In this document: piece after piece, positions 9,858 through 63,081 of the stretch
Numbering within the stretch: the first letter of the stretch is position 1
Layout: every line of letters begins with the position of its first letter
Origin: Candidatus Parcubacteria bacterium
GTDB lineage: Bacteria; Patescibacteriota; Minisyncoccia; JACPXH01
Assembly: GCA_016196625.1 (NCBI GenBank)
Contig: JACPXH010000007.1
Location: 18,631 to 82,630 of the forward strand
DNA: 64,000 bases
Direction of reading: 5' to 3'
The notes under the pieces: model-generated
The model's input: only the letters and a program-made list of their open reading frames with translations
Told to the model about the DNA's origin: nothing
Database searches by the model: none
Position numbers and translations under genes: made by a program

Positions 9858-11504
9858 TTATTCGAGCGGATTGCGCTCGACCGGGTAGAGGGCCGGTGAT
9901 TTGTAGTTTGACCAGAATGTTTTTTTGCCGATGAGTTCGCCGTTGCGGCTCACGATCTGGGTTATTTTGGCCTTGAGCGAGCCGTCAGGGTTTTTCTCAA
10001 ATTCGTAAGGACCGTCAATTGTAACCTCACGGCCGTCAGGGGCGCCAAAAAAGTCAATGGTGAGGTTTGTACCTTCGACGCGGGTCTGGATTAGAATTGG
10101 GGCGTTCGTGTCATTCCGAAATACGAGATCCGGGCCGCCCGGATAGATGGTCGCGTCAAACCCTTGGGGCGTGCCGTAGTAGCGGACCGGATAGGCGTGC
10201 GGGAAGCGCTTCAAGATTTCGAGGCCGGCTTTGGCGGCCGCGCGGAACATGGTGGTTGAAACTTGGCACACCCCGCCGCCGTATTCGGGCACGGTCTTGC
10301 CGTTTTTGATCACGAGCGCGATGTGGTAGCCGGTGGTGGCGTCAATGGGGCCGATGGTTTCGTTAAACGAGAACGTGGCTCCGGCTTCAACCAGAAGGCC
10401 ATTGTACCGTTCGGCAGCCACTTTGATGTTGTGGCTGCGCGCGGGGGTGGAACCGTTAAAATCAGTCTCCCCCCGGCCGAGCAGCGCCGTGATGCCAAGT
10501 TCACGCAGCCGCTCCAAGCTGACCGCCGCACTTTTGTTGGCAACGAGCAAGGACAGCACTTCAGTGTTTGTTTCAAGGATGTGCCGGGTTATGCGCGGTA
10601 CGTTTTCTTCAATGAGCAAGTCTGCGCCGTTCCGGCTGGGGGTGGCTTCGGTTAGGATCCCGTTCTGTTCGGCAAGGTATGCTTGAGACGGATCGCGGTG
10701 GACCGATGGCGCAAGGTCGGCCAGGAATCCGCGCACCGCATCCGGTTCGAGCCTTTCGTCTGGCGCCGTGAGCGTGAGCCACGGTTTGAGCACGTCTGTG
10801 GTGATTGCGAGCACCCGGCCGTCCACGCTGAACCGAAACGGAGCTGTGGCGAGAATGCGGTACGCATCTGTTTGCACGCGCGCAAGTTGAGTTCCAGTGG
10901 TCGCGGGCGCGCGCGAAACCAGTGAAACGTTGAAAGGCGGGTGCGAGGACTGGAGTTGTTCGGTTGCGTCTGCCAGTTGCGTCTTGAGTTTTGTGCGATC
11001 AATGACAAGACCGTTCTGCCCGGGTGTGATCGCGAGCGTATCTCCTCGCCAAGTGAGCGCCGGCTCTCGTACTGCCCGCTCCAGATCCCCAAAGTGTTCT
11101 TTCAGGAAATGTGCCAGCGTGAGTTCGTTCAGGCGGTAGGCTACCCGAATGCGGCGGGGCTTCAAGAATAGCTCGACTTGTTCGATGAGCGCCCGGAGCG
11201 GGTTCGGGTTGTGCCCCGCTTGCCAGATTGCCGCCAGAGTTTCCTTGGCGTCGATGGTGAGACCCAGCTCGGCCGGCGTGGCCCCGATAGAGTTCGCTTC
11301 AGATGTAAAGATGAATGAGGCGGCACTAAAACGGTCGATGCGGGCCCCCAGGAGAGCTGAGGCTTCATTCCTCGTAAGCTCCCCAAACGAAAGATCGCCC
11401 ACGCGCACGCCCCGGGCTACCTGTCCGCTGTTGGCGGAAGAGAACACGGCCAGGCCTAGGCCGGCTAGGAGGAAAACGGCAGTCGCGATTCTCAAAATTC
11501 TCAT
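9858..11504 (-). CDS. VanW-family protein
   Basis: N-terminal TM, GGGVCQVSTTMFRAA motif typical of VanW domain; 548 aa. Confidence 0.7.
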   Translation of the reverse strand: MRILRIATAVFLLAGLGLAVFSSANSGQVARGVRVGDLSFGELTRNEASALLGARIDRFSAASFIFTSEANSIGATPAELGLTIDAKETLAAIWQAGHNPNPLRALIEQVELFLKPRRIRVAYRLNELTLAHFLKEHFGDLERAVREPALTWRGDTLAITPGQNGLVIDRTKLKTQLADATEQLQSSHPPFNVSLVSRAPATTGTQLARVQTDAYRILATAPFRFSVDGRVLAITTDVLKPWLTLTAPDERLEPDAVRGFLADLAPSVHRDPSQAYLAEQNGILTEATPSRNGADLLIEENVPRITRHILETNTEVLSLLVANKSAAVSLERLRELGITALLGRGETDFNGSTPARSHNIKVAAERYNGLLVEAGATFSFNETIGPIDATTGYHIALVIKNGKTVPEYGGGVCQVSTTMFRAAAKAGLEILKRFPHAYPVRYYGTPQGFDATIYPGGPDLVFRNDTNAPILIQTRVEGTNLTIDFFGAPDGREVTIDGPYEFEKNPDGSLKAKITQIVSRNGELIGKKTFWSNYKSPALYPVERNPLE

Positions 11505-32066: not shown

Positions 32067-32483
32067 ATATCAAAGTATTATACGCTGAATTCAAAACGGC
32101 TTGAAATTTCCCCGAAAAACGGCTGGCGAGCCCGCGTATTTGTCCCTCGTAGCCCGAAGGGCGAAGTGGGAGCGGGCGAGCCAATGACTTCATTTCCTAA
32201 CTGGCGGTGTCTGTTTGAAAATATCCGAACGGAACTCTCTGGGCCCCGCCTGCGTTGAAACTTCGGCGGGCAGGTCGGCGGGCGGCCCCGCAACTATCTC
32301 GCTTCGCTCGAAGTGCGGGGTAAAAATTCCCCCCGACCCCCTGGAGTTTATCCCGCATAATCCCGAAGGGATTTGTGCGGGGCCCGCCTCGCCTTGCCTG
32401 CCCGACCGATAGGCGGGAACCGGAGCGGAAAGCATGCCCCGTAGTGAACGCGGAGCGTTCTACTACTGGGGGCGATTTCAAGT

Positions 32484-32819
32484 CTACATCGGCAACGGCA
32501 TTGATTCGTGCACTTCGATTTCACATCCACTTGACCACTCAAGATGGGGGTGTCCCTTAAGCATCGCTACGGCGTCTTTCATACTTTCAGCTTGCAGAAT
32601 TGAGTAGCCAACAACATCTTTGTCGCTCGGAGAGGTTCCGTCTTTGGTAACTTTTTGTCCATTAGCCAAAGGAGTTCCCATGTCCACAAGCCCACTACCA
32701 CATTTTTTAGCCCATGCCATCCACGGTTCCATCCCCTTTTTCATGTCTTCTGGGCTTACGTCTTTCATACCCGCCATTGCACTTTTTGACATGTGATAAA
32801 CTACAATAAATTTTTTCAT
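32484..32819 (-). CDS. YciI-like/DGPF-domain small protein (tentative)
   Basis: 111-aa ORF, loose resemblance to YciI-like alpha+beta barrel proteins. Confidence 0.3.
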   Translation of the reverse strand: MKKFIVVYHMSKSAMAGMKDVSPEDMKKGMEPWMAWAKKCGSGLVDMGTPLANGQKVTKDGTSPSDKDVVGYSILQAESMKDAVAMLKGHPHLEWSSGCEIEVHESMPLPM

Positions 32820-32917
32820 AGTCGTTGCATTTTTAATGATTTATTACTCGACCTTGATGGTATTGTACGCTAAGGAAAGAATGATCTCAAGTTTTTCTTT
32901 GGCGGCAATGCTGGAGA

Positions 32918-33208
32918 TTACAATCTGAAATAGAAAACAGGAGCACATGCCGCAAGTATGGCAACAATTTGAATTGCGAGGACCAAGAGCACTTGCTTTG
33001 GTCTCTGCGGCAACCACCTAATTGCGAAAAACGACACCATCAGTACTTCTAGAACTAGCCAAATTTGAAATAGATGTGCGCCCGTTCCTTCATCTGGCTG
33101 ACGGACGGGAACGCCGGATATCGCAATATAAATCAGCATTGTAGCCAAAACAATCAACGACATTGCTATTGGAATCCAAGCACTAGGCTTTTTTATTGTT
33201 GAATTCAT
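32918..33208 (-). CDS. small membrane protein (3 TM)
   Basis: 96-aa hydrophobic ORF; preceded by island repeat tctcaagtttttctttggcgg. Confidence 0.35.
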   Translation of the reverse strand: MNSTIKKPSAWIPIAMSLIVLATMLIYIAISGVPVRQPDEGTGAHLFQIWLVLEVLMVSFFAIRWLPQRPKQVLLVLAIQIVAILAACAPVFYFRL

Positions 33209-33394
33209 GGGCTTATCTCAAGTTTTTCTTTGGCGGAATACAAATTTGAGCGTGCGGAGTGCTCATGATTAGCTCTTTATAAAAAGAGGATGTGTGGTTC
33301 TATCGGTTGTGTTGCTCCAAGTCAGGATTTTTTCGGTAAAGAAAATATTGTACTAGAGTGATTCCCCACATGATAATGCCGACAGAAAAAGATA

Positions 33395-33592
33395 TTAGAG
33401 GTAGAAAGGCGTGGGTAGCATAAAAAAATGCAATTTGAGAAGCGTAAAAACATAGGCAATCAATATTGCCGTTACCGGTTGCCCGGATCTCTTTTCGCGA
33501 TAATTTTTTGCTATCTGGGCTGGTATGCCAACCAACACTAGGGTGAGTGCAAAAACGCTTACTAAAATGCTAAGAAAAAATATTAAGTCCAC
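33395..33592 (-). CDS. small membrane protein (65 aa)
   Basis: two TM helices; AT-rich. Confidence 0.25.
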   Translation of the reverse strand: MDLIFFLSILVSVFALTLVLVGIPAQIAKNYREKRSGQPVTAILIAYVFTLLKLHFFMLPTPFYL

Positions 33593-33783
33593 GATTATTT
33601 ACAGAATTATGGAAAAAATGTTTCTTTTGCCTTTATGGTTCGATAAGCTCACCACAGGTTGATACATCTTCTTCGTTTTCCTTGTCCGCCAAAGCCTTGG
33701 CGACGGCGGAGCCAAAAAATCCCTTTCAAATCCTAGCCGAGCGGCGCGTCCCGTGCCGCGAGCCAATGACTTCATTTCCCAAC

Positions 33784-33875
33784 TGGCGGTGGGCAGAGGA
33801 TTCGAACCTCTGTGGGATTTTTTAGATCCCCGCAGTTTAGCAAACTGCTGCCTTAAGCCACTCGGCCAGCCCACC
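33784..33875 (-). tRNA. tRNA-Ser (anticodon GCT), long variable arm, CCA encoded
   Basis: acceptor GGTGGGC/GCCCACC, D-arm TGGCCGAGTGG, anticodon stem GCAGT/ACTGC loop TTGCTAA, variable arm GGGGATCTAAAAAATCCCAC, T-loop TTCGAAT. Confidence 0.88.
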
Positions 33876-34004
33876 ATTTTAAATTTCTCGGCAAAGCCTA
33901 ATCAAGTCGTGGTCTCGTGTCTTCCCTGGCGACTTTTTGTCGCCCGTCAAAAGCTGCGCACGCTCGCTTTTGACCCACTCAGCCACGCCTCCTCCTTGTA
34001 TCCC

Positions 34005-34108
34005 TAACTGGCGGTGTATATTGAAAATAGCTCGAACGGAATTCTGTCCTCGCCCGCCTGCGGCGGGCTCGGGTCGGGAGGGCAAAAAATCCGCGCGGCT
34101 CCGCCGCG
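34005..34108. repeat. inverted repeat IRa-left (exact partner at 34870-34968); begins with tRNA-Ser 3'-end-like aactggcggtg and degenerate T-arm
   Basis: reverse complement of 34870-34968 matches over ~99 bp with no mismatches seen. Confidence 0.7.
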
Positions 34109-34148
34109 AACATTAACAATTTCAAGTTTTTCTTTGGCGGCAATTACG

Positions 34149-34790
34149 TTATTTTGAAAATTTAAAAGAATTGATCATTTCCAGAAATATCTCATCGGGT
34201 GCGGGCGCTTCTGTATCTCTCTGTTTGACCAGAAGATAAAGCCAACTATCCCTAGTCACAAATGCATTCTCAAGGTAACTATTTTCTCCCCCGAATGAGG
34301 CGTATATAACGGGAATGTATTTTCCTTTTACGCCATCGAAGAATGGTATTAATGCTTTTTCTTCCTCAATATCCCGAGGGAATCCAAGAAACGTATTGGA
34401 ATTCAAGAAGTTAAGATTTTGTGGTGAAGCGGTGAAGCTCGGCGCAACATATAATTCGGCCCCGCAAGAAAATTCCCTTTGATGAACTGGAGTAAAGCAA
34501 ATACTGTATAAAGAATTTAGTTTTGGTTCAGGGTAAAAATAAGGCGGTGGTATGGGATTCTTATCCTTGGGAAGTGTGTGGTCTTGTTCCAGTGGTTTTA
34601 AATCACTTGGATATTTTATCTCAAATCCATATTTTTCATTTCTATATGTTTTCCAGGTAAAAGTTTTAATCTGACTCAGAGGTTCCGGTTTTAGCGGCAG
34701 AGGAACATTTCCCGATTTTTTTGCAATAAAATAGCTTGCTAACACTATAATTGCAACGATTATTATTACCCAAGTTACTTTTGTTCTCAT
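34149..34790 (-). CDS. hypothetical secreted/membrane-anchored protein bracketed by IRa pair
   Basis: MRTKVTWVIIIVAIIVLASYF signal/anchor; AT-rich; ORF-track N-terminal extension is read-through of IRa. Confidence 0.5.
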   Translation of the reverse strand: MRTKVTWVIIIVAIIVLASYFIAKKSGNVPLPLKPEPLSQIKTFTWKTYRNEKYGFEIKYPSDLKPLEQDHTLPKDKNPIPPPYFYPEPKLNSLYSICFTPVHQREFSCGAELYVAPSFTASPQNLNFLNSNTFLGFPRDIEEEKALIPFFDGVKGKYIPVIYASFGGENSYLENAFVTRDSWLYLLVKQRDTEAPAPDEIFLEMINSFKFSK

Positions 34791-34869
34791 ATGATTAAAA
34801 AATTCCCCAAAAATTAAAATATGGTTCGAGCCGATTTGTTTTTCAGGTTCTTTGGCAGTTTGGGATCTT

Positions 34870-34968
34870 TGCGGCGGAGCCGCGCGGATTTTTTGCCCTC
34901 CCGACCCGAGCCCGCCGCAGGCGGGCGAGGACAGAATTCCGTTCGAGCTATTTTCAATATACACCGCA
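34870..34968. repeat. inverted repeat IRa-right
   Basis: see IRa-left. Confidence 0.7.
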
Positions 34969-35066
34969 AGTCAGGAAAACGCAAATTATGGACAGATGCC
35001 TCGCGGCGCGGGACGCGCCGCTCGGCTAGGGTTTGAAAGGGCTTTTTTGGCGAAAAGGAAAGGGAT
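34964..35066. repeat. inverted repeat IRb-left (partner 36478-36578, ~97% identical), abuts IRa-right
   Basis: caccgcaagtcaggaaaacgcaaattatggacagatgcctcgcggcgcgggacgcgccgctcggctagggtttgaaagggcttttttggcg is the reverse complement of 36478-36578. Confidence 0.7.
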
Positions 35067-35105
35067 TTATCAATCAGGGCAAAAGAATTTTTTAACTACA
35101 AAACT

Positions 35106-36656
35106 ATGAGATATATAATTTACGCGAGGAAATCCACGGAGAGTGAGGAACGACAGATATTAAGCATTGAATCTCAAATATCTGAATTGAAAGAATTTGC
35201 CGCCAAAGAAAAACTTGAAATTGTTGCCTCGCTTTGCGAAGCCCAAACTGCCAAAGAACCTGGGCGAATGAAATTCGCAGAGATGTTGTCATTTTTGGAA
35301 TCAGGAAAAGCAGACGGAATACTTTCTTGGAATCCAGATCGTCTCGCCAGAAATTCCATAGACGGAGGACAGATTATCTATCTGTTGGACACAGGAAAGA
35401 TAAAAGATTTGAAATTTCCAACGCACTGGTTTGAGAATACACCGCAAGGAAAATTCATGCTGAACATTGCCTTTGGGCAAAGCAAGTATTATGTGGACAA
35501 TTTGAGTGAGAACATCAAGCGTGGACATAGGGCAAAACTACGAAAAGGAATTTGGCCGAGCTTTGCCCCACTAGGATATACGAACAATCACAAAACGCGA
35601 GATGTTGATGTTGATTTGGAGAAAGCTCCGCTAGTCCGAAAAGGTTTTGAGCTTTACTCAACTGGTAAATATACCCTTAAGCAAATAGCTAAAATTTGGA
35701 AAGATCTCGGATTGCGGAGCTACAAAGGCAATGTTCTAGCAGTTTCCTGTGTCCAGCGAATTTTGAAAAGTACATTTTACTATGGAATTTTCGAGTTCAA
35801 TGGCGAGACGTATCAAGGTTCGCACGAGCCGTCAATCTCAAAGAAACTTTTTGATAACTGTCAGGAAATAATGAAGGATCGCGGACATATTATGACTAGA
35901 AAATCAGAGAAAACTTTTCCATTTCGCGGTTTGCTCACTTGTGGAGAATGTAAATGCGCCATTACCGCCGAAACACAAAAAGGACACAACTATTATCGTT
36001 GCACCAAGAAGCGCGAACTGTGTTCACAAAAATATGTCCGCGAAGAATTGCTCACCGAGCAAGTAAAAAGTTTTCTTCAAAAAGTTTCTTTGCCGAGCCA
36101 AGACATGGAAAAAGTTTTGCGCGAGTTGGACAAGGACGAGCAGAAAGCAAGAGAGGATAGTTTAGCTCTGGTTAGTACTTTGAAAAATGATTTAGTGGAC
36201 ATAGAAACAAGGTTAGACAAATTGCTTTCTGCTTACCTCGATAAAGTAATTACATCGGAAGAATATGCCGCGCAAAAACAAAAAATGCTCGACCAGAGAG
36301 TAGAGCTGAAAGAGAAAATTCATGAAATCGAGGATAAAGGCGTGTCTTGGCTCGAACCAGCTCGTGCGTGGATTAAATCCTTGAATCAAGCGGAGAAACT
36401 GCTTTTGTCTGGGGATAAGTCGGAAATGACAACATTTCTAAAACAAATCGGCTCGAACCATATTTTGATCGATAAATCCTTTTCTTTTTCGCCAAAAAAG
36501 CCCTTTCAAATCCTAGCCGAGCGGCGCGTTCCGCGCCGCGAGGCATCTGTCCATAATTTGCGTTTTCCTGACTTGCGGAAGCGGGAGGATTCGAACCTCC
36601 GAAGGGGACTAGCCCCCAACTGGTTTTTCCCGATTTTGTTCACGCGGAACGCGTGA
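35106..36656 (+). CDS. large serine recombinase (resolvase catalytic domain + recombinase domain + zinc ribbon); C-terminal ~40 codons likely read-through into IRb-right
   Basis: YARKSTESEERQ..SIESQ catalytic Ser motif, ILSWNPDRLARN, CGECKC..YYRC zinc ribbon, coiled-coil; AT-rich. Confidence 0.8.
   Translation: MRYIIYARKSTESEERQILSIESQISELKEFAAKEKLEIVASLCEAQTAKEPGRMKFAEMLSFLESGKADGILSWNPDRLARNSIDGGQIIYLLDTGKIKDLKFPTHWFENTPQGKFMLNIAFGQSKYYVDNLSENIKRGHRAKLRKGIWPSFAPLGYTNNHKTRDVDVDLEKAPLVRKGFELYSTGKYTLKQIAKIWKDLGLRSYKGNVLAVSCVQRILKSTFYYGIFEFNGETYQGSHEPSISKKLFDNCQEIMKDRGHIMTRKSEKTFPFRGLLTCGECKCAITAETQKGHNYYRCTKKRELCSQKYVREELLTEQVKSFLQKVSLPSQDMEKVLRELDKDEQKAREDSLALVSTLKNDLVDIETRLDKLLSAYLDKVITSEEYAAQKQKMLDQRVELKEKIHEIEDKGVSWLEPARAWIKSLNQAEKLLLSGDKSEMTTFLKQIGSNHILIDKSFSFSPKKPFQILAERRVPRREASVHNLRFPDLRKREDSNLRRGLAPNWFFPILFTRNA
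36478..36578. repeat. inverted repeat IRb-right
   Basis: see IRb-left. Confidence 0.7.
36579..36650 (-). pseudogene. tRNA 3'-half-like fragment (T-arm GGAGG-TTCGAAT-CCTCC + acceptor 3' strand, no matching 5' acceptor)
   Basis: ggaggattcgaacctcc on + strand; no complementary GGAAGCG 5' strand found. Confidence 0.4.
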
Positions 36657-36683
36657 TTACAAAATCGAGGATCCCGTCCAAAG

Positions 36684-36770
36684 CGGCGAGGGTGAGATTC
36701 GAACTCACGATACCCTTTCGGGTATACCTGTTTTCAAGACAGGTCTGTTCAACCACTCCAGCACCTCGCC
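36684..36770 (-). tRNA. tRNA-Ser (anticodon TGA), long variable arm, no encoded CCA
   Basis: acceptor GGCGAGG/CCTCGCC, anticodon stem CCTGT/ACAGG loop CTTGAAA, variable arm TATACCCGAAAGGGTATC, T-loop TTCGAAT. Confidence 0.85.
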
Positions 36771-40046: not shown

Positions 40047-40090
40047 GGGCGAGATTATAGCACGCTCAACTCATTTTGTGGATAAGCACT

Positions 40091-48268: not shown

Positions 48269-48460
48269 GCAGCCGGGCGAATTGATTGTGGATAAGTGTG
48301 TTATCGAGCGAACCGCCGGTTTATGTTAAAATATAGCTACGCCCCTAAGGGGCAATAAAGTCATGGGAACATTGCTTTGGTCGAGGGCAGTGCCCCCAAA
48401 TTCAGGTGGTCTCATCAAACCTAATTTCATTTAACTGATTTATCCATCTCGGAAAAGTCT

Positions 48461-59521: not shown

Positions 59522-59575
59522 GGGCGGGGACGACGGGATTTGAACCCGCAACCTCTGCCGTGACCCCGCACCAAA
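59522..59575 (-). pseudogene. tRNA-Asp 3'-half-like fragment directly downstream of tRNA-Asp
   Basis: GTCACGGCAGAGG..CGGGTTCAAATCCCGTCG parallels tRNA-Asp GTCACGGAGG..ACGGGTTCAAATCCCGTCG but lacks D-arm and has different acceptor. Confidence 0.45.
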
Positions 59576-59582
59576 ACCGAAG

Positions 59583-59658
59583 CGCTCGCGACGGGATTTG
59601 AACCCGTGGTTTCCTCCGTGACAGGGAGGCGTGTTGGACCGGGCTACACTACGCGAGC
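59583..59658 (-). tRNA. tRNA-Asp (anticodon GTC)
   Basis: acceptor GCTCGCG/CGCGAGC, anticodon stem CCTCC/GGAGG loop CTGTCAC, T-loop TTCAAAT. Confidence 0.88.
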
Positions 59659-59727
59659 ATATATTTTGTACGGGGCAGGCAGGGCAGCGCTTTGAGCCGC
59701 TAAGCTACGCCCGCATTCTGGTTTGTA

Positions 59728-59803
59728 CTGGTAGCGGTGGAGGGATTCGAACCCCCGACCCATGGCTTATGATGCCACTGCTCTACCGCTGAGCTACACC
59801 GCC
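59728..59803 (-). tRNA. tRNA-Met elongator or Ile2 (anticodon CAT), CCA encoded
   Basis: acceptor GGCGGTG/CACCGCT, D-arm GCTCAGCGGTAGAGC, anticodon loop ATCATAA, T-loop TTCGAAT. Confidence 0.85.
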
Positions 59804-59950
59804 ATTCTGAACATCATCTAGTGTATCCCAGGTGTTTGGCACCGCGCAATTGCAGGGAAGTAGTCAACCTTCGCCGCAAAAAAGAAAGGCTCCGATCCCG
59901 AAGGACCGGAGCCCAGTGCCGAAGGGGGAGCGACGCTCCCCGTCGAAGTT

Positions 59951-60376
59951 CTACCTGCGGAGCGGTTGGCCGAGGAGACCGCCGTCAGTGCTGGCGATCA
60001 AGGCCGGAGCCGGTTTCGTCGTAGTATCGATATCGCCGTGGGCCGTGCCAGTACCCGTGCATTCAGCGAGTCGCCAGTGCGGACTCGATGATATGTCAGC
60101 CGTGAGGCCGCGCAGGGTCGCCGTCGCCGGAGCAGTCACAGTAACCGGAATCGCCGCCGTCATGGTCGTCAGGCCGTCGCGCTGGAAGGATGTCCAGGTG
60201 GCCATGTATTGGGGAACCGTAATCCAGACCGTGATGTCGATGTCGCCGCTGGCGGTTATGTTGACCGTCAGGATCGGCTCGCTGCCGGGATTCATCGTGT
60301 CGGTGGCGATCGCCGGCGGCGGAGCCGCAACGAACAGAATGGCGAGCAGTGCGATCGCGAACAACGCGCGTCTCAT
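59951..60376 (-). CDS. hypothetical secreted protein
   Basis: GGAGG SD, signal peptide MRRALFAIALLAILFVAAPPPAIA; preferred over overlapping + strand ORF. Confidence 0.5.
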   Translation of the reverse strand: MRRALFAIALLAILFVAAPPPAIATDTMNPGSEPILTVNITASGDIDITVWITVPQYMATWTSFQRDGLTTMTAAIPVTVTAPATATLRGLTADISSSPHWRLAECTGTGTAHGDIDTTTKPAPALIASTDGGLLGQPLRR

Positions 60377-60498
60377 GCCCCCTTCCTCCTTCCTGCAGAG
60401 CGGAAAAGAGTTTACGAAGAGCCGGTTGCCCGATGCGTTACCCTCCTTTCTCCGATTTGTTTAAAAGACCATTACGCAACCCGAAAAGCTGCGTACTC

Positions 60499-61011
60499 TC
60501 ACTCTACAGTAGCTTGCCGTAGTTGGCAAGCGGCGTTGTCCACAGCAGTGGCCATGTCGTTCTCTGACAGGGTTCTTTCCAGCAGGTCGGATTCCACAAG
60601 AGCTGCCTTGATTCGGGAGAGCGCGGCATTCAGTGGTGCGTCGTGATCGGCGAGCTCGGCGATCTTCCGACAGGCGTGCAGCACGGTGGTGTGATCGCGG
60701 TTTCCGAACATCGCTCCGATGGCCGAGTAGGACCATGTGAGCTCGGTTCGTATCAGGTACATTGCGACTTGACGCGCGAGGGCAGTACGTCGCATCCGCG
60801 ACTTGCCGGTGAGCTCTCCCGTTTGGAGTTCGAAGGCAGCCGCGGTTACCCCAAGAATACCCCTTCCGCTTCTCTTAAACACCTGACCTTTCTTGGCGCT
60901 TTCGGCCTCCTGATTGGTACGTTGGACAGAGAGGCAACACTCCCGAATGAAAAGCCGGAGTGCGGCTCTTGCCGCAGGCGGGAGCTCTTGGAGCAGCTCT
61001 GCATCAGTCAT
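60499..61011 (-). CDS. DnaA C-terminal (domain IV) HTH-only protein
   Basis: LARQVAMYLIRTELTWSYSAIGAMFGNRDHTTVLHACRKI almost identical to DnaA domain IV signature; no AAA+ domain. Confidence 0.7.
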   Translation of the reverse strand: MTDAELLQELPPAARAALRLFIRECCLSVQRTNQEAESAKKGQVFKRSGRGILGVTAAAFELQTGELTGKSRMRRTALARQVAMYLIRTELTWSYSAIGAMFGNRDHTTVLHACRKIAELADHDAPLNAALSRIKAALVESDLLERTLSENDMATAVDNAACQLRQATVE

Positions 61012-61020
61012 GGTGCCCTC

Positions 61021-61428
61021 CTAGTTGACTCGCCGGGACTTATCCTGCGCTCGGCCCAGTTCGCTGACCTCCACTATGAGCTCGGCGATTGCCCGCTGGG
61101 TTGAACCATCGGTGAGGGCCTGCTCGACCAACCGTATTCCCGCATCTGAATACATTGCGGCGATCGTCGTGAGGAAACTCACAAGGTCAATGTCGGTGGC
61201 GAGCACAGCTCGACCCTTCGCTTTGGCGAGATCGTTGGTTTCGTCAACGACTTGCTTCCGGAGCGATTCAATGCATGCCTCGATGAATTCAATGAGCTTT
61301 GCTTTTGCCTCCGTACTCAACGACCGCGAGTAGGCTTCTCCCTGCATGGTTCCCTCCCTTTTCGGTTTCAGAAACCAATAGCATGCTTTGTAGCTGCCGG
61401 TCAACCGGCAGTTCTTTTCGCAAACCAC
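61021..61428 (-). CDS. hypothetical protein co-oriented with DnaA-domain-IV genes
   Basis: ORF; likely start MQGEAYSRS. Confidence 0.35.
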   Translation of the reverse strand: MVCEKNCRLTGSYKACYWFLKPKREGTMQGEAYSRSLSTEAKAKLIEFIEACIESLRKQVVDETNDLAKAKGRAVLATDIDLVSFLTTIAAMYSDAGIRLVEQALTDGSTQRAIAELIVEVSELGRAQDKSRRVN

Positions 61429-61535
61429 TGTATAGCGGCCTATCCATCGGCTGTATCTATTTGTATTGTTGGTGGGGATAGCGCGTTCTAGCGGTAAAGC
61501 AAAGCGCCTGCCGGGTCCTAGCGGATCGGCAGGCG

Positions 61536-62030
61536 TTAGCTGGCAGCCAGAGCGGCCCTGATTTCCGAAACCAGCTGCTGGATATACGGTTCGTTGAGGC
61601 GCGTCTCAATCTTGCGCAGGCCATAGGTCGTCATAGCATTGTCCGAGTGACCAAAGGCCTGCGAAATCGTGTCGGGTGTCCAGCCTAGGTCGGCTGAAAG
61701 CAGGTACATGACCAGGTGTCTGGCCAAAACGAAGTCTTGAATTTTGCTTCGGCCAAGGATCGCCTCCGGCTCAACGCGACAAACCTCGCCGACTGATCTT
61801 AGGAGCTGCTGGGCGCGTTGGTCGGAGGTGAGAAGTTCAGCCGGTAGGTTATGCATCGGCCTCACTTCGGCGGCGCCATCAGCTCCACCGTTCCCATGGC
61901 AGTAGCACTGGTTCCCCCTGTTGTACAGGCCCAGGGGCTTTCTGCATATTGTGCACCGGCGCTTTGGCTGAGGGGCTGGAGCTGTGCGTGCATCTTCAAG
62001 AACCGTGAGATCTACAGAGAGCTTATCCAT
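61536..62030 (-). CDS. zinc-finger + divergent DnaA-domain-IV-like HTH protein
   Basis: CTICRKP..CYCHG Cys cluster; FVLARHLVMYLLSADLGWTPDTISQAFGHSDNAMTTYGLRKIE. Confidence 0.5.
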   Translation of the reverse strand: MDKLSVDLTVLEDARTAPAPQPKRRCTICRKPLGLYNRGNQCYCHGNGGADGAAEVRPMHNLPAELLTSDQRAQQLLRSVGEVCRVEPEAILGRSKIQDFVLARHLVMYLLSADLGWTPDTISQAFGHSDNAMTTYGLRKIETRLNEPYIQQLVSEIRAALAAS

Positions 62031-62214
62031 TTCTTCCTCCTTTCCCGTGGTTGCTACTATATAGCATTTTCGTCTTGTCTACAACTTTAGGCCACCGGTC
62101 GGTTGTCAACGGCCTTTACGGAGTAACGCTTTGCAACCAACAGTTATCTATACTACAATATAATGAGATTCGTGGAGGTACGATTTTATTAATATCTATC
62201 TCACAAGACGGCCT

Positions 62215-62580
62215 ATGAGGCTTTTCGAAAGAAATACGAAAAAGAAGTGGGTCCTCCACTTTATGGTTTTCCCCTCTAGGCGCACGGGGTGGTATACAGC
62301 CGTTTGTTTCGAACTTGCGCTGGTACGCGAGGGTCAGGAGGCTTACCGCCTGATACAGCAAATAAACAAGATTGCCCTCAGGTACATGCAATCTGTGATA
62401 AAAAGTAATTTGAGCGATGAATTACTGAATCAAAAGCTACCCCAGCGTTACCTAGCAAGATATAAACAAGCTCAAGCTAAAGAGGTTGAAGCATTGAAAT
62501 TGAAATGGGAGGGTATTGTCCGTGAATTCATTTGGCGGCGAAGTTCTCGCTCATCTCGTCCCATTGCTATCAATGTCTAA
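62215..62580 (+). CDS. HicB-like (UPF0150) antitoxin candidate
   Basis: WVLHFMVFPSRRTGWYTAVCFELALVREGQEAYRLIQQINKIALRY fits HicB N-domain pattern; AT-rich. Confidence 0.35.
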   Translation: MRLFERNTKKKWVLHFMVFPSRRTGWYTAVCFELALVREGQEAYRLIQQINKIALRYMQSVIKSNLSDELLNQKLPQRYLARYKQAQAKEVEALKLKWEGIVREFIWRRSSRSSRPIAINV

Positions 62581-62908
62581 GAAAGAAGGTAATCGGCTAG
62601 GTAACCCGCCGCATTACAATGTTGGTACATGGGAGCCCTCGCTTGTCGAGGGTTTCCTTGTAGCTCATGGGTTTGAGCTTGTGAGCATTGATGGCGACGA
62701 CGCTCTATGGAGGGGGAAGGCACCAAGTGGCGAGGACGCACAGGTTGCGTTTCCGGTGAGGAGACTACAGTTAACGCCTGGCACTATGCGCGATTCTGTA
62801 ATGCGGCACTCTGGTTACGATAAGAAGCACTGGGATCTTTGGCGTTCTCTCGGTAAACGTGAGCGTAAAAGCGCTAGATGCTGTTTTTTCAGAGAAGGTA
62901 AGGTCTAA
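62516..62908 (+). CDS. HicA/YcfA-like toxin candidate (lacks canonical GSH His)
   Basis: LVAHGFELVSIDGDDALWRGKAPSGEDAQVAFPVRRLQLTPGTMRDSVMRHSG fits HicA fold pattern; overlaps upstream ORF by 65 nt. Confidence 0.3.
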   Translation: MSVNSFGGEVLAHLVPLLSMSKKEGNRLGNPPHYNVGTWEPSLVEGFLVAHGFELVSIDGDDALWRGKAPSGEDAQVAFPVRRLQLTPGTMRDSVMRHSGYDKKHWDLWRSLGKRERKSARCCFFREGKV

Positions 62909-62970
62909 TCCAGAGCGTCAAAATAAACTCTTCCGACCCCCTTCAAATCCCACCCTACACGGTACAGAAA

Positions 62971-63003
62971 CGCTCACCACCGAAGGGGTGGTGAGCGTTT
63001 GTT
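62971..63003 (+). terminator. Rho-independent terminator (cgctcaccacc-gaag-ggtggtgagcg + tttgtt)
   Basis: perfect 11-bp stem, 4-nt loop, T-run. Confidence 0.65.
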
Positions 63004-63007
63004 AGTG

Positions 63008-63081
63008 TTGCGGGGGTGGGATTTGAACCCACGACCTCAGGGTTATGAGCCCTGCGAGCTACCAGACTGCTCCACCCCGCG
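63008..63081 (-). tRNA. initiator tRNA-fMet (anticodon CAT)
   Basis: near-identical to E. coli tRNAfMet: CGCGGGGTGGAGCAG..CTCATAA loop with GGG/CCC stem, C1:A72 mismatch, TTCAAAT T-loop. Confidence 0.9.

Follow-up and report, generated by a model that had tools for sequence, protein, structure and literature searches.

We describe the interval between two tRNA-Met genes (59729-59803 and 63007-63081, both on the minus strand) in a 64,000-nt stretch of DNA, hereafter the window, from a groundwater metagenome-assembled genome of Candidatus Parcubacteria (Sungbacteria-like; contig JACPXH010000007.1 of 216,792 bp, locus tags HYZ80_). Our results suggest, with chances that we put at about even, that this interval is a recombination hot spot, which holds a recently exchanged module of three genes together with small strain-specific insertions, and which encodes a 170-aa stand-alone DnaA domain IV protein acting as a DnaA-box binder, as well as a HicBA-like pair. 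The comparison was made with the Parcubacteria/Sungbacteria genomes L001, L003 (GCA_016186535.1), and L004, and in part with L005. Replication control and the regulatory repertoire of the candidate phyla radiation (CPR) are almost unknown. In addition, the sharp drop in synonymous divergence (dS) over a tRNA-flanked module makes a clean, testable case of recent exchange between diverged uncultivated episymbionts with no dedicated recombinase.

Probable Recent Exchange of a Three-Gene Module

The module contains the genes for a 141-aa secreted protein, the 170-aa domain IV protein, and a 164-aa domain IV paralogue with a zinc finger (ZnF). Its divergence from the relatives differs sharply from that of the neighboring genes. 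GatA and LigA share 75-77% protein identity and about 71% DNA identity with their counterparts in the relatives, with dS values of 2.1 for gatA and 1.7 for ligA. In contrast, the two domain IV genes share 84-90% protein identity at dS 0.20-0.25, the secreted-protein gene has a dS of 0.37-0.45, and the module DNA is 82-95% identical to that of the relatives. In 150-nt bins compared with L003, the mean identity was 0.87 at 59.7-62.1 kb, compared with 0.69 for the flanks (Mann-Whitney p=1.4e-6). The identity changed stepwise at the tRNAs and near 62.1 kb, and the comparison with L004 gave a similar picture. The low dS of the module, compared with values of 1.7-2.1 in the flanks, therefore suggests recent exchange between diverged genomes.

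Within the module, the distances among the three genomes are about equal, whereas the gatA sequence of the window stands as a remote outgroup to the other two (dS 2.1, vs. 0.59 between L003 and L004). L005 is a mosaic, in which the secreted-protein gene has a dS of 0.3-0.4 to the window and the ZnF gene a dS of about 2. The tRNA genes at the flanks are 99-100% identical between genomes. The simplest route of exchange would be homologous recombination anchored in these invariant tRNA genes, which would require no integrase. In a separate observation, the 150-nt-bin identity between L003 and L004 in gatA (12600-14300 in L003) was itself a mosaic, changing from 0.55-0.74 to 0.87-0.95, so the module is not the only place where these lineages recombine.

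The gene order of L003 is pheST, a membrane protein gene, tRNA-fMet, the ZnF gene, the 170-aa gene, the secreted-protein gene, tRNA-Met, tRNA-Asp, a small membrane protein gene, gatA, gatC, and ligA, which equals that of the window on both sides. The core is also shared by L001 and L004, on the side of gatA. In L005 the ZnF gene is followed by the secreted-protein gene and tRNA-Met, with no 170-aa gene between the two, and the ZnF protein is 48% identical. The three core genes have a GC content of 0.57-0.64 and a GC content at third codon positions (GC3) of 0.63-0.77, compared with a GC3 of 0.62-0.69 in ligA, gatA, clpB, and pilM. They are intact and of the same length in all relatives, with a ratio of nonsynonymous to synonymous divergence (dN/dS) of 0.25-0.37 (0.25-0.35 for the 170-aa gene). 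Each transcription unit of the module has its own promoter-like and terminator-like signals, and these intergenic regions are conserved across the relatives. Only the 108-aa open reading frame orf108 and the HicB/HicA-like cassette are strain-specific within the segment.

These features could also describe an ordinary, vertically inherited core locus, whose low divergence would result from unusually strong constraint or from a mutation rate that is low in this place. The perfect synteny with L003 on both sides, the host-like composition, and the conserved promoter and terminator regions all fit such a locus. However, the synonymous and intergenic sites of the module are 5-10 times less diverged than those of gatA and ligA, yet its dN/dS is higher (0.25-0.37 vs. 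about 0.08). Stronger constraint would predict the opposite and does not account for this pattern: the conserved sites are the synonymous and intergenic ones, while dN/dS exceeds that of gatA. The equidistance of the genomes in the module, set against the outgroup position of the window in gatA, and the mosaic histories in L005 also disagree with simple inheritance, which we consider unlikely.

The DnaA Domain IV Proteins of the Module

The 170-aa protein is encoded at 60499-61011 on the minus strand. It matched the Pfam family Bac_DnaA_C (PF08299) with 84.3 bits (E=6e-24, residues 52-117, cut-off 31.5), and the domain as a whole covers residues 52-127. There was no AAA+ match in the Pfam and NCBIfam scans. 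In NCBIfam, both domain IV proteins matched only the final 90 or so positions of the DnaA models, with scores well under the cut-offs. For example, the 170-aa protein scored 90.4 bits against the full-length DnaA model TIGR00362, whose cut-off is 343.9, and covered model positions 350-436 only, short of a full-length DnaA. These results bear out the earlier note, which had proposed a protein with DnaA domain IV and no AAA+ module.

The 170-aa protein was aligned without gaps over 73 residues to domain IV of Escherichia coli DnaA bound to a DnaA box (1J1V). The equivalents of R399, R407, Q408, D433, H434, T435, T436, and H439 are retained, and the DHTTVLH recognition helix is complete, while L422 is replaced by Y and P423 by S. 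The roles of R399 and L422 follow PMC7049699; the other residues are counted as DnaA-box contacts on general background.

A frameshifted dnaA was considered as the source of the two domain IV genes and rejected, as the AAA+-bearing DnaA fragments in a tblastn search matched the window only through their domain IV parts. By contrast, all four sampled "DnaA_C-only" database proteins on long contigs (L015, L016, L017, and L018) were pieces of a frameshifted dnaA directly upstream of dnaN, probably from assemblies with indel errors. Since every sampled hit was a broken dnaA, database counts of stand-alone domain IV proteins are inflated. A literature search for domain IV proteins in the CPR found nothing.

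The second domain IV protein, of 164 aa, is encoded at 61536-62030 on the minus strand and matched Bac_DnaA_C with 35.6 bits (E=9.7e-9, same cut-off). Its N-terminal C-x2-C-x12-C-x2-H motif shows no variation among four homologues with identities as low as 47%, so that the proposed combination of a Zn finger and a DnaA-IV-like domain also held. It is 32% identical to the 170-aa protein across 75 residues. Its recognition helix reads DNAMTTY where the 170-aa protein has DHTTVLH, and the residues that contact the DnaA box are lost (K, D, N, A...Y). These substitutions suggest that the 164-aa protein probably reads a different sequence.

The ZnF architecture is very rare, with 5 homologues in 5.8 billion proteins. 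Searches for further relatives of this protein or of the secreted one gave one GTDB species (Candidatus Sungiibacteriota) and no JGI metagenome contig. In the NCBI record the ZnF gene (HYZ80_02285) codes for 106 aa, starting at Met59. The 58 upstream codons, however, are conserved, contain the Zn-finger motif, and evolve as coding sequence (dN/dS 0.37-0.42); the NCBI model is therefore probably too short, and the 164-aa form is likelier. The conserved region upstream of the gene (62031-62121, minus strand), which includes its promoter, forms the right edge of the shared module; homology stops at 62084 for L003 and at 62121 for L001 and L004.

DnaA Boxes and the Possible Role of the 170-aa Protein

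No DnaA-box cluster was found at 59.8-63 kb, where the earlier note had advised looking for one. A search for TTATCCACA with at most one mismatch gave a single site, in coding sequence, and TTWTNCACA was absent from the segment and occurred twice in the window, compared with 2.5 occurrences expected. The single site, TTGTCCACA, has one mismatch and lies at 60536-60544, at the 3' end of the 170-aa gene. L003 has a perfect TTATCCACA there (11152-11160), and L001 has no box. The site probably arises incidentally from the V-D-K codons. There was also no indication of a replication origin nearby: GC skew was positive over the whole window with no switch, and neither dnaA nor dnaN was detected in it.

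The only two perfect DnaA boxes of the window lie at 40077-40085 and 48287-48295, in intergenic regions of a type IV pilus cluster, one of them upstream of pilM and the other between two pilin-like genes, in the same orientation. Each is part of an identical 11-mer, TTGTGGATAAG, that lies upstream of a -10-like hexamer at a distance of 28-31 nt. DnaA or the 170-aa protein might target these boxes, which we treat as a lead, not as evidence.

With its box-contacting residues kept and domains I-III missing, the 170-aa protein would be expected from its sequence to bind TTATCCACA-type boxes and not to initiate replication. It would be a plain DNA binder that neither oligomerizes into an ATP-dependent filament nor opens DNA, and might act as a competitor of DnaA, or as a transcription factor, at DnaA boxes.

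Alternatively, the domain IV proteins might act through protein-protein contacts and not by binding DNA, in the manner of HdaB, which titrates HdaA and thereby blocks DnaA's regulatory inactivation (RIDA). HdaB of Alphaproteobacteria, the sole characterized stand-alone domain IV protein, has lost R399, kept L422, and binds HdaA (PMC7049699). There were weak matches to the PRK06030 models, and the lack of a nearby DnaA-box cluster would also suit a role of this kind. However, the pattern of residues is reversed in the 170-aa protein, which keeps R399 and the full DHTTVLH and has Y at 422, and the PRK06030 scores of 37.5, 32.7, and 29.9 bits compare with cut-offs of 136, 148, and 181. Hda and RIDA are known from Proteobacteria, and the search for an Hda-like gene was confined to this window. 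Taken together, a mechanism like that of HdaB is distinctly improbable.

The Secreted Protein and orf108

The 141-aa protein (59951-60376, minus strand) is encoded next to tRNA-Met in L001, L003, L004, and L005. As had been proposed, it appears to be secreted: the N-terminus consists of MRR, 15 hydrophobic residues, and AIA, a signal-peptide-like start that is kept in four relatives. No match was found in the family libraries searched. At residues 38-100 the protein has a dN of 0.39-0.47 and an omega of 0.5-0.98, and this hypervariable center sits between the conserved start and a conserved C-terminus ending in LRR. Such a pattern is as expected of a surface-exposed protein.

The orf108 gene (61021-61347, minus strand) belongs to a one-gene insertion of 336 bp. 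The inserted DNA (61023-61356), which includes a duplicated ribosome-binding site (RBS) and start context, is missing in L001, L003, and L004, where homology restarts exactly at either end. The protein forms a singleton cluster with weak family matches only. The idea that it is paralogous to the N-terminal part of the 170-aa protein was considered and rejected (BLASTP E=1.8), and neither orf108 nor the HicA-like family described below was found in viral contigs. Upstream of it, the conserved intergenic region at 61357-61535 contains a terminator-like hairpin of the ZnF gene, followed by a promoter and RBS that serve the 170-aa gene in the relatives (minus strand; 92% mean column identity in four genomes). 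Since orf108 lies between these signals and the 170-aa gene, both genes are probably now co-transcribed.

The HicB/HicA-Like Cassette

The right end of the segment, from 62085 (compared with L003) or 62122 (compared with L001 and L004) to 63006, has a GC content of 0.476, compared with 0.566 for the window. This strain-specific block of about 0.9 kb (62122-63006, plus strand) has a GC3 of 0.48, compared with 0.62-0.69 in host genes, and no counterpart in L001, L003, or L004. It contains two plus-strand open reading frames (ORFs), at 62215-62580 (121 aa) and 62573-62908 (111 aa), which overlap, as described in the earlier note, with a shared length of 8 nt, and a promoter-like site lies ahead of them at 62130-62159.

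The proposal that these ORFs form a HicB/HicA-like pair stood at the level of fold and not in the HMM and sequence searches. Neither protein had a match in Pfam, NCBIfam, PADLOC, or the PDB sequence search, or by hhalign against E. coli HicA and HicB. None of 14 members of the HicA-like family had a Pfam match at E<=10, hhalign against E. coli HicA gave a probability of 0.6%, and a PDB profile search with the pair gave no link to HicA or HicB. [quoted passage not shown] For the 121-aa protein, HicB was a weak top group that was not separated from other small alpha/beta folds. This model has three strands, a helix, and a single long C-terminal helix (residues 77-110), with no helix-turn-helix (HTH) or ribbon-helix-helix (RHH).

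HicA toxins have a catalytic His (His23, His24, His28, or His36) at G-S-H, the gene order hicBA is known, and HicB proteins frequently have no domain that binds DNA (PMC11594946). E. coli HicA carries GSNH. The family in question has an invariant G41-D42-D43 with no His at the beta1-beta2 turn, an equivalence judged by secondary structure and motif, whereas an invariant His86 is found elsewhere and a conserved basic tail of 30 aa ends in CC. The protein has a HicA fold that apparently lacks the canonical catalytic His; if it is a toxin, the active site would be modified, and the HicB-fold partner would neutralize it.

The pair is conserved in L006-L012, where the genes are co-oriented with overlapping stop and start codons (a 4-nt overlap in L006 and L007). 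There it occurs on contigs of about 40-45% GC with different neighbors, such as tRNA-Arg in L006 and L27/RNase T in L008. The upstream HicB-like component comprises at least 106 sequence clusters. We read the pair as a divergent hicBA-type cassette, with a putative HicB, that was acquired from a lower-GC CPR lineage. It would represent a toxin-antitoxin (TA)-like family that circulates in CPR genomes and is invisible to Pfam, NCBIfam, and PADLOC.

Two further observations were made around the cassette. A 14-nt inverted copy of the T-loop/T-stem of tRNA-fMet is located at 62942-62955, just 3' of the HicA-like gene. In L006 and L007 the cassette comes after tRNA-Arg, and imperfect direct repeats similar to the 3' end of a tRNA lie on both sides of it (at about 118-150 and 940-1010 in L006). 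The inverted copy and the repeats may be traces of cassette movement.

Origin of the Interval

Several points weigh against an exchanged module between tRNA anchors that encodes a DnaA-box binder and a HicBA-like pair. On the right side, the homology of the module to the relatives ends in unrelated DNA and not in the tRNA. An independent Logan contig with the same sequence covers only 59527-63038; it ends exactly in the tRNAs, which are therefore branch points of the assembly graph. Neither the module nor its surroundings hold a cluster of DnaA boxes, the single box of the module carries one mismatch and lies in a coding region, and DNA binding by the 170-aa protein is proposed from its conserved residues. 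For the cassette, the HicB-fold match is indistinct from other small alpha/beta folds, and the HicA-like family has no link to HicA at the sequence level. Finally, only 3-4 relatives are known, and all of them are metagenome-assembled from similar groundwater samples.

The earlier note regarded the interval as an accessory segment left by a decayed element, and described domain-IV-only proteins as typical of phage and plasmid replication modules. An accessory nature holds for the right end, which has low GC and GC3, is absent from the relatives, and has homologous cassettes in unrelated contexts; the module is also less diverged than its flanks. It does not hold for the composition and position of the three-gene core, which is host-like and syntenic. 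Such synteny and core-like composition had been named in advance as evidence against an accessory segment, and they were largely found for the core, with orf108 and the cassette being strain-specific. Decay was contradicted by intact ORFs of equal length, a dN/dS of 0.25-0.37, and the conserved promoter and terminator regions. The supposed association with phages and plasmids did not hold either: in tblastn searches the domain was found in 41 of 50,697 phage and 59 of 72,556 plasmid records, and many of these hits were complete dnaA genes.

An origin as a phage, plasmid, or integrative element, from which replication-control genes and a TA pair survive after loss of the integrase, would agree with the tRNA flanks and the inward-facing 3' end of tRNA-fMet, the TA-like pair, the variable content among relatives, and a divergence well below that of the flanks, as for a recent arrival. 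The tRNA-Asp remnant and the inverted T-arm copy of tRNA-fMet nearby also point in this direction. However, the core is intact, of equal lengths, under purifying selection, and host-like in GC and GC3, and it is found at the same position in genomes whose synonymous divergence is saturated. PHROG and PADLOC gave no phage, plasmid, or defence match on the segment better than E about 1e-3; the PHROG matches of the domain IV proteins had E>=1e-3, compared with 1e-25 to cellular DnaA. The scanned ORFs of at least 40 aa in the segment contained no integrase or recombinase domain, in agreement with the absence already noted, and the 3' end of tRNA-fMet had no att-type direct repeat, only the inverted 14-nt T-arm copy. 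In addition, the TA-like cassette is a separate, later low-GC insert that is absent from the relatives bearing the module. We give an element of this type little credence for the interval, and for the core it is not supported.

A more speculative form of the exchange treats the three-gene module as a cassette that is selfish or semi-autonomous, has no integrase, and spreads among diverged CPR species by transformation and by homologous recombination in the invariant tRNA genes. Its DnaA-box reader would rewire host promoters, with the two TTGTGGATAAG sites upstream of pilus genes as candidates, and/or replication initiation, and would thereby promote its own transfer. We regard this as quite improbable. 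An assembly or binning artefact, by which the module of a co-occurring relative was joined through identical tRNA genes, would fit the identity of these genes between co-occurring species and the Logan contig that stops inside them, but it is very improbable, as three independent assemblies (the window, L003, and L004/L001) show the same order with three distinct module variants, the Logan contig carries the window-specific tRNA-Asp arrangement at 100% identity, and the repeats are only about 75 nt, while the designation k141_... that a related contig has in the same study suggests k-mers up to 141, which we assume for the contig of the window as well.

Boundaries and Neighboring Features

The minus-strand tRNA-Asp, tRNA-Met, and second tRNA-Met were called by both ARAGORN and Rfam, and the boundaries proposed earlier for the two tRNA-Met genes agreed with these calls within 1 nt. 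Rfam detected no non-coding RNA or intron at 59.0-63.4 kb beyond these three tRNAs. The left tRNA-Met(CAT), which bounds the module, differs by 0-1 nt from the copies in L001, L003, and L005. The right tRNA-Met(CAT) is identical to that of L003 (100%) and is of the initiator type, as judged from its C1xA72 mismatch and an anticodon stem with three G:C pairs. Its 3' end (63007) points into the segment, as had been stated. Terminator-like hairpins follow the secreted-protein gene (59887-59914, minus strand, a 12-bp stem and a T-run), the 170-aa gene (60473-60495, minus strand), and the last plus-strand gene, where a perfect 14-bp hairpin (62968-63000, plus strand) lies between the HicA-like gene and tRNA-fMet.

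The tRNA-Asp locus (59522-59728) has been rearranged. A remnant of the older gene (59522-59564, minus strand), which was missed by ARAGORN and Rfam, corresponds with 100% identity to the 3' portion (43 nt, starting at the anticodon) of tRNA-Asp in L003 and L001. It adjoins an intact tRNA-Asp(GTC) of a different allele from that of the relatives (59582-59658, minus strand; ARAGORN, Rfam, and alignment). The spacer between tRNA-Met and tRNA-Asp is 70 nt in the window and 26 nt in L003, whereas in L001 (3016-4012) and L004 (3148-4023) it holds a free-standing gene, about 1 kb long, for a LAGLIDADG homing endonuclease. In the window it contains a piece like a tRNA 5' half that ends in the anticodon loop and is followed by CCTGCCCCGTAC, which is also present at the start of the LAGLIDADG insertion of the relatives. 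It looks as if the replacement tRNA-Asp was inserted into the anticodon loop of the old gene. Rfam detected no intron at this locus.

The title of the earlier note implied a first accessory segment elsewhere in the window. This is presumably the low-GC stretch at about 32300-36000 (0.40-0.47 vs. 0.566) around the tRNA-Ser genes at 33784-33875 and 36683-36770.

Comparison With Known Systems

The finding comprises a new variant of stand-alone domain IV proteins, of a putative DNA-reading type and with a Zn-finger fusion, a HicBA-like cassette that is an orphan at the sequence level, and a tRNA-flanked, hot-spot-like slot. None of these is categorically new. Similar to tRNA-linked islands, the segment lies beside a tRNA 3' end, varies in content, includes a low-GC insert, and has fragments of tRNAs in its vicinity. 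Unlike them, it has no integrase or direct att repeats, is only about 3 kb long, and contains a host-like conserved core. Patchy presence and atypical composition, which are used to recognize islands, were both seen at 62122-63006, and orf108 showed patchy presence only, whereas the core lacks both but has a discordantly low divergence.

The HicB/HicA-like pair resembles the HicAB/HicBA type II TA systems (PDB 1WHZ, 6G26, 5YRZ, 4P78, and 6HPB) in that the gene for a dsRBD-like protein overlaps that of an upstream partner whose modeled beta-beta-beta-alpha arrangement weakly resembles HicB-N. The hicBA order, the self-contained unit with promoter-like and terminator-like signals, and the varied genomic contexts are shared as well. 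It differs from HicA in the lack of detectable sequence similarity, GDD in the apparent place of G-S-H, the tail ending in CC, and His86. Compared with HicB proteins that have a DNA-binding domain, the HicB-like partner has a long helix in place of an HTH or RHH.

Compared with E. coli DnaA, the 170-aa protein is without domains I-III and thus has no AAA+ module, oligomerization, or helicase loading. Relative to domain IV itself, it adds helical regions of about 50 aa at the N-terminus and about 43 aa at the C-terminus, whereas the 164-aa paralogue has the substitutions H434N, T435A, and H439Y plus the added Zn finger. Similar to HdaB, which is thought to tune initiation, the 170-aa protein is a short stand-alone DnaA domain IV homologue encoded away from dnaA. 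Stand-alone domain IV proteins have so far been characterized only as HdaB, in which DNA binding is lost. In the 170-aa protein, by contrast, the DNA-reading residues are intact, and it belongs to a CPR lineage with two paralogues, one of them fused to a Zn finger. If this reading is true, a CPR box reader without the initiator machinery would be a natural competitor at, or regulator of, DnaA boxes.

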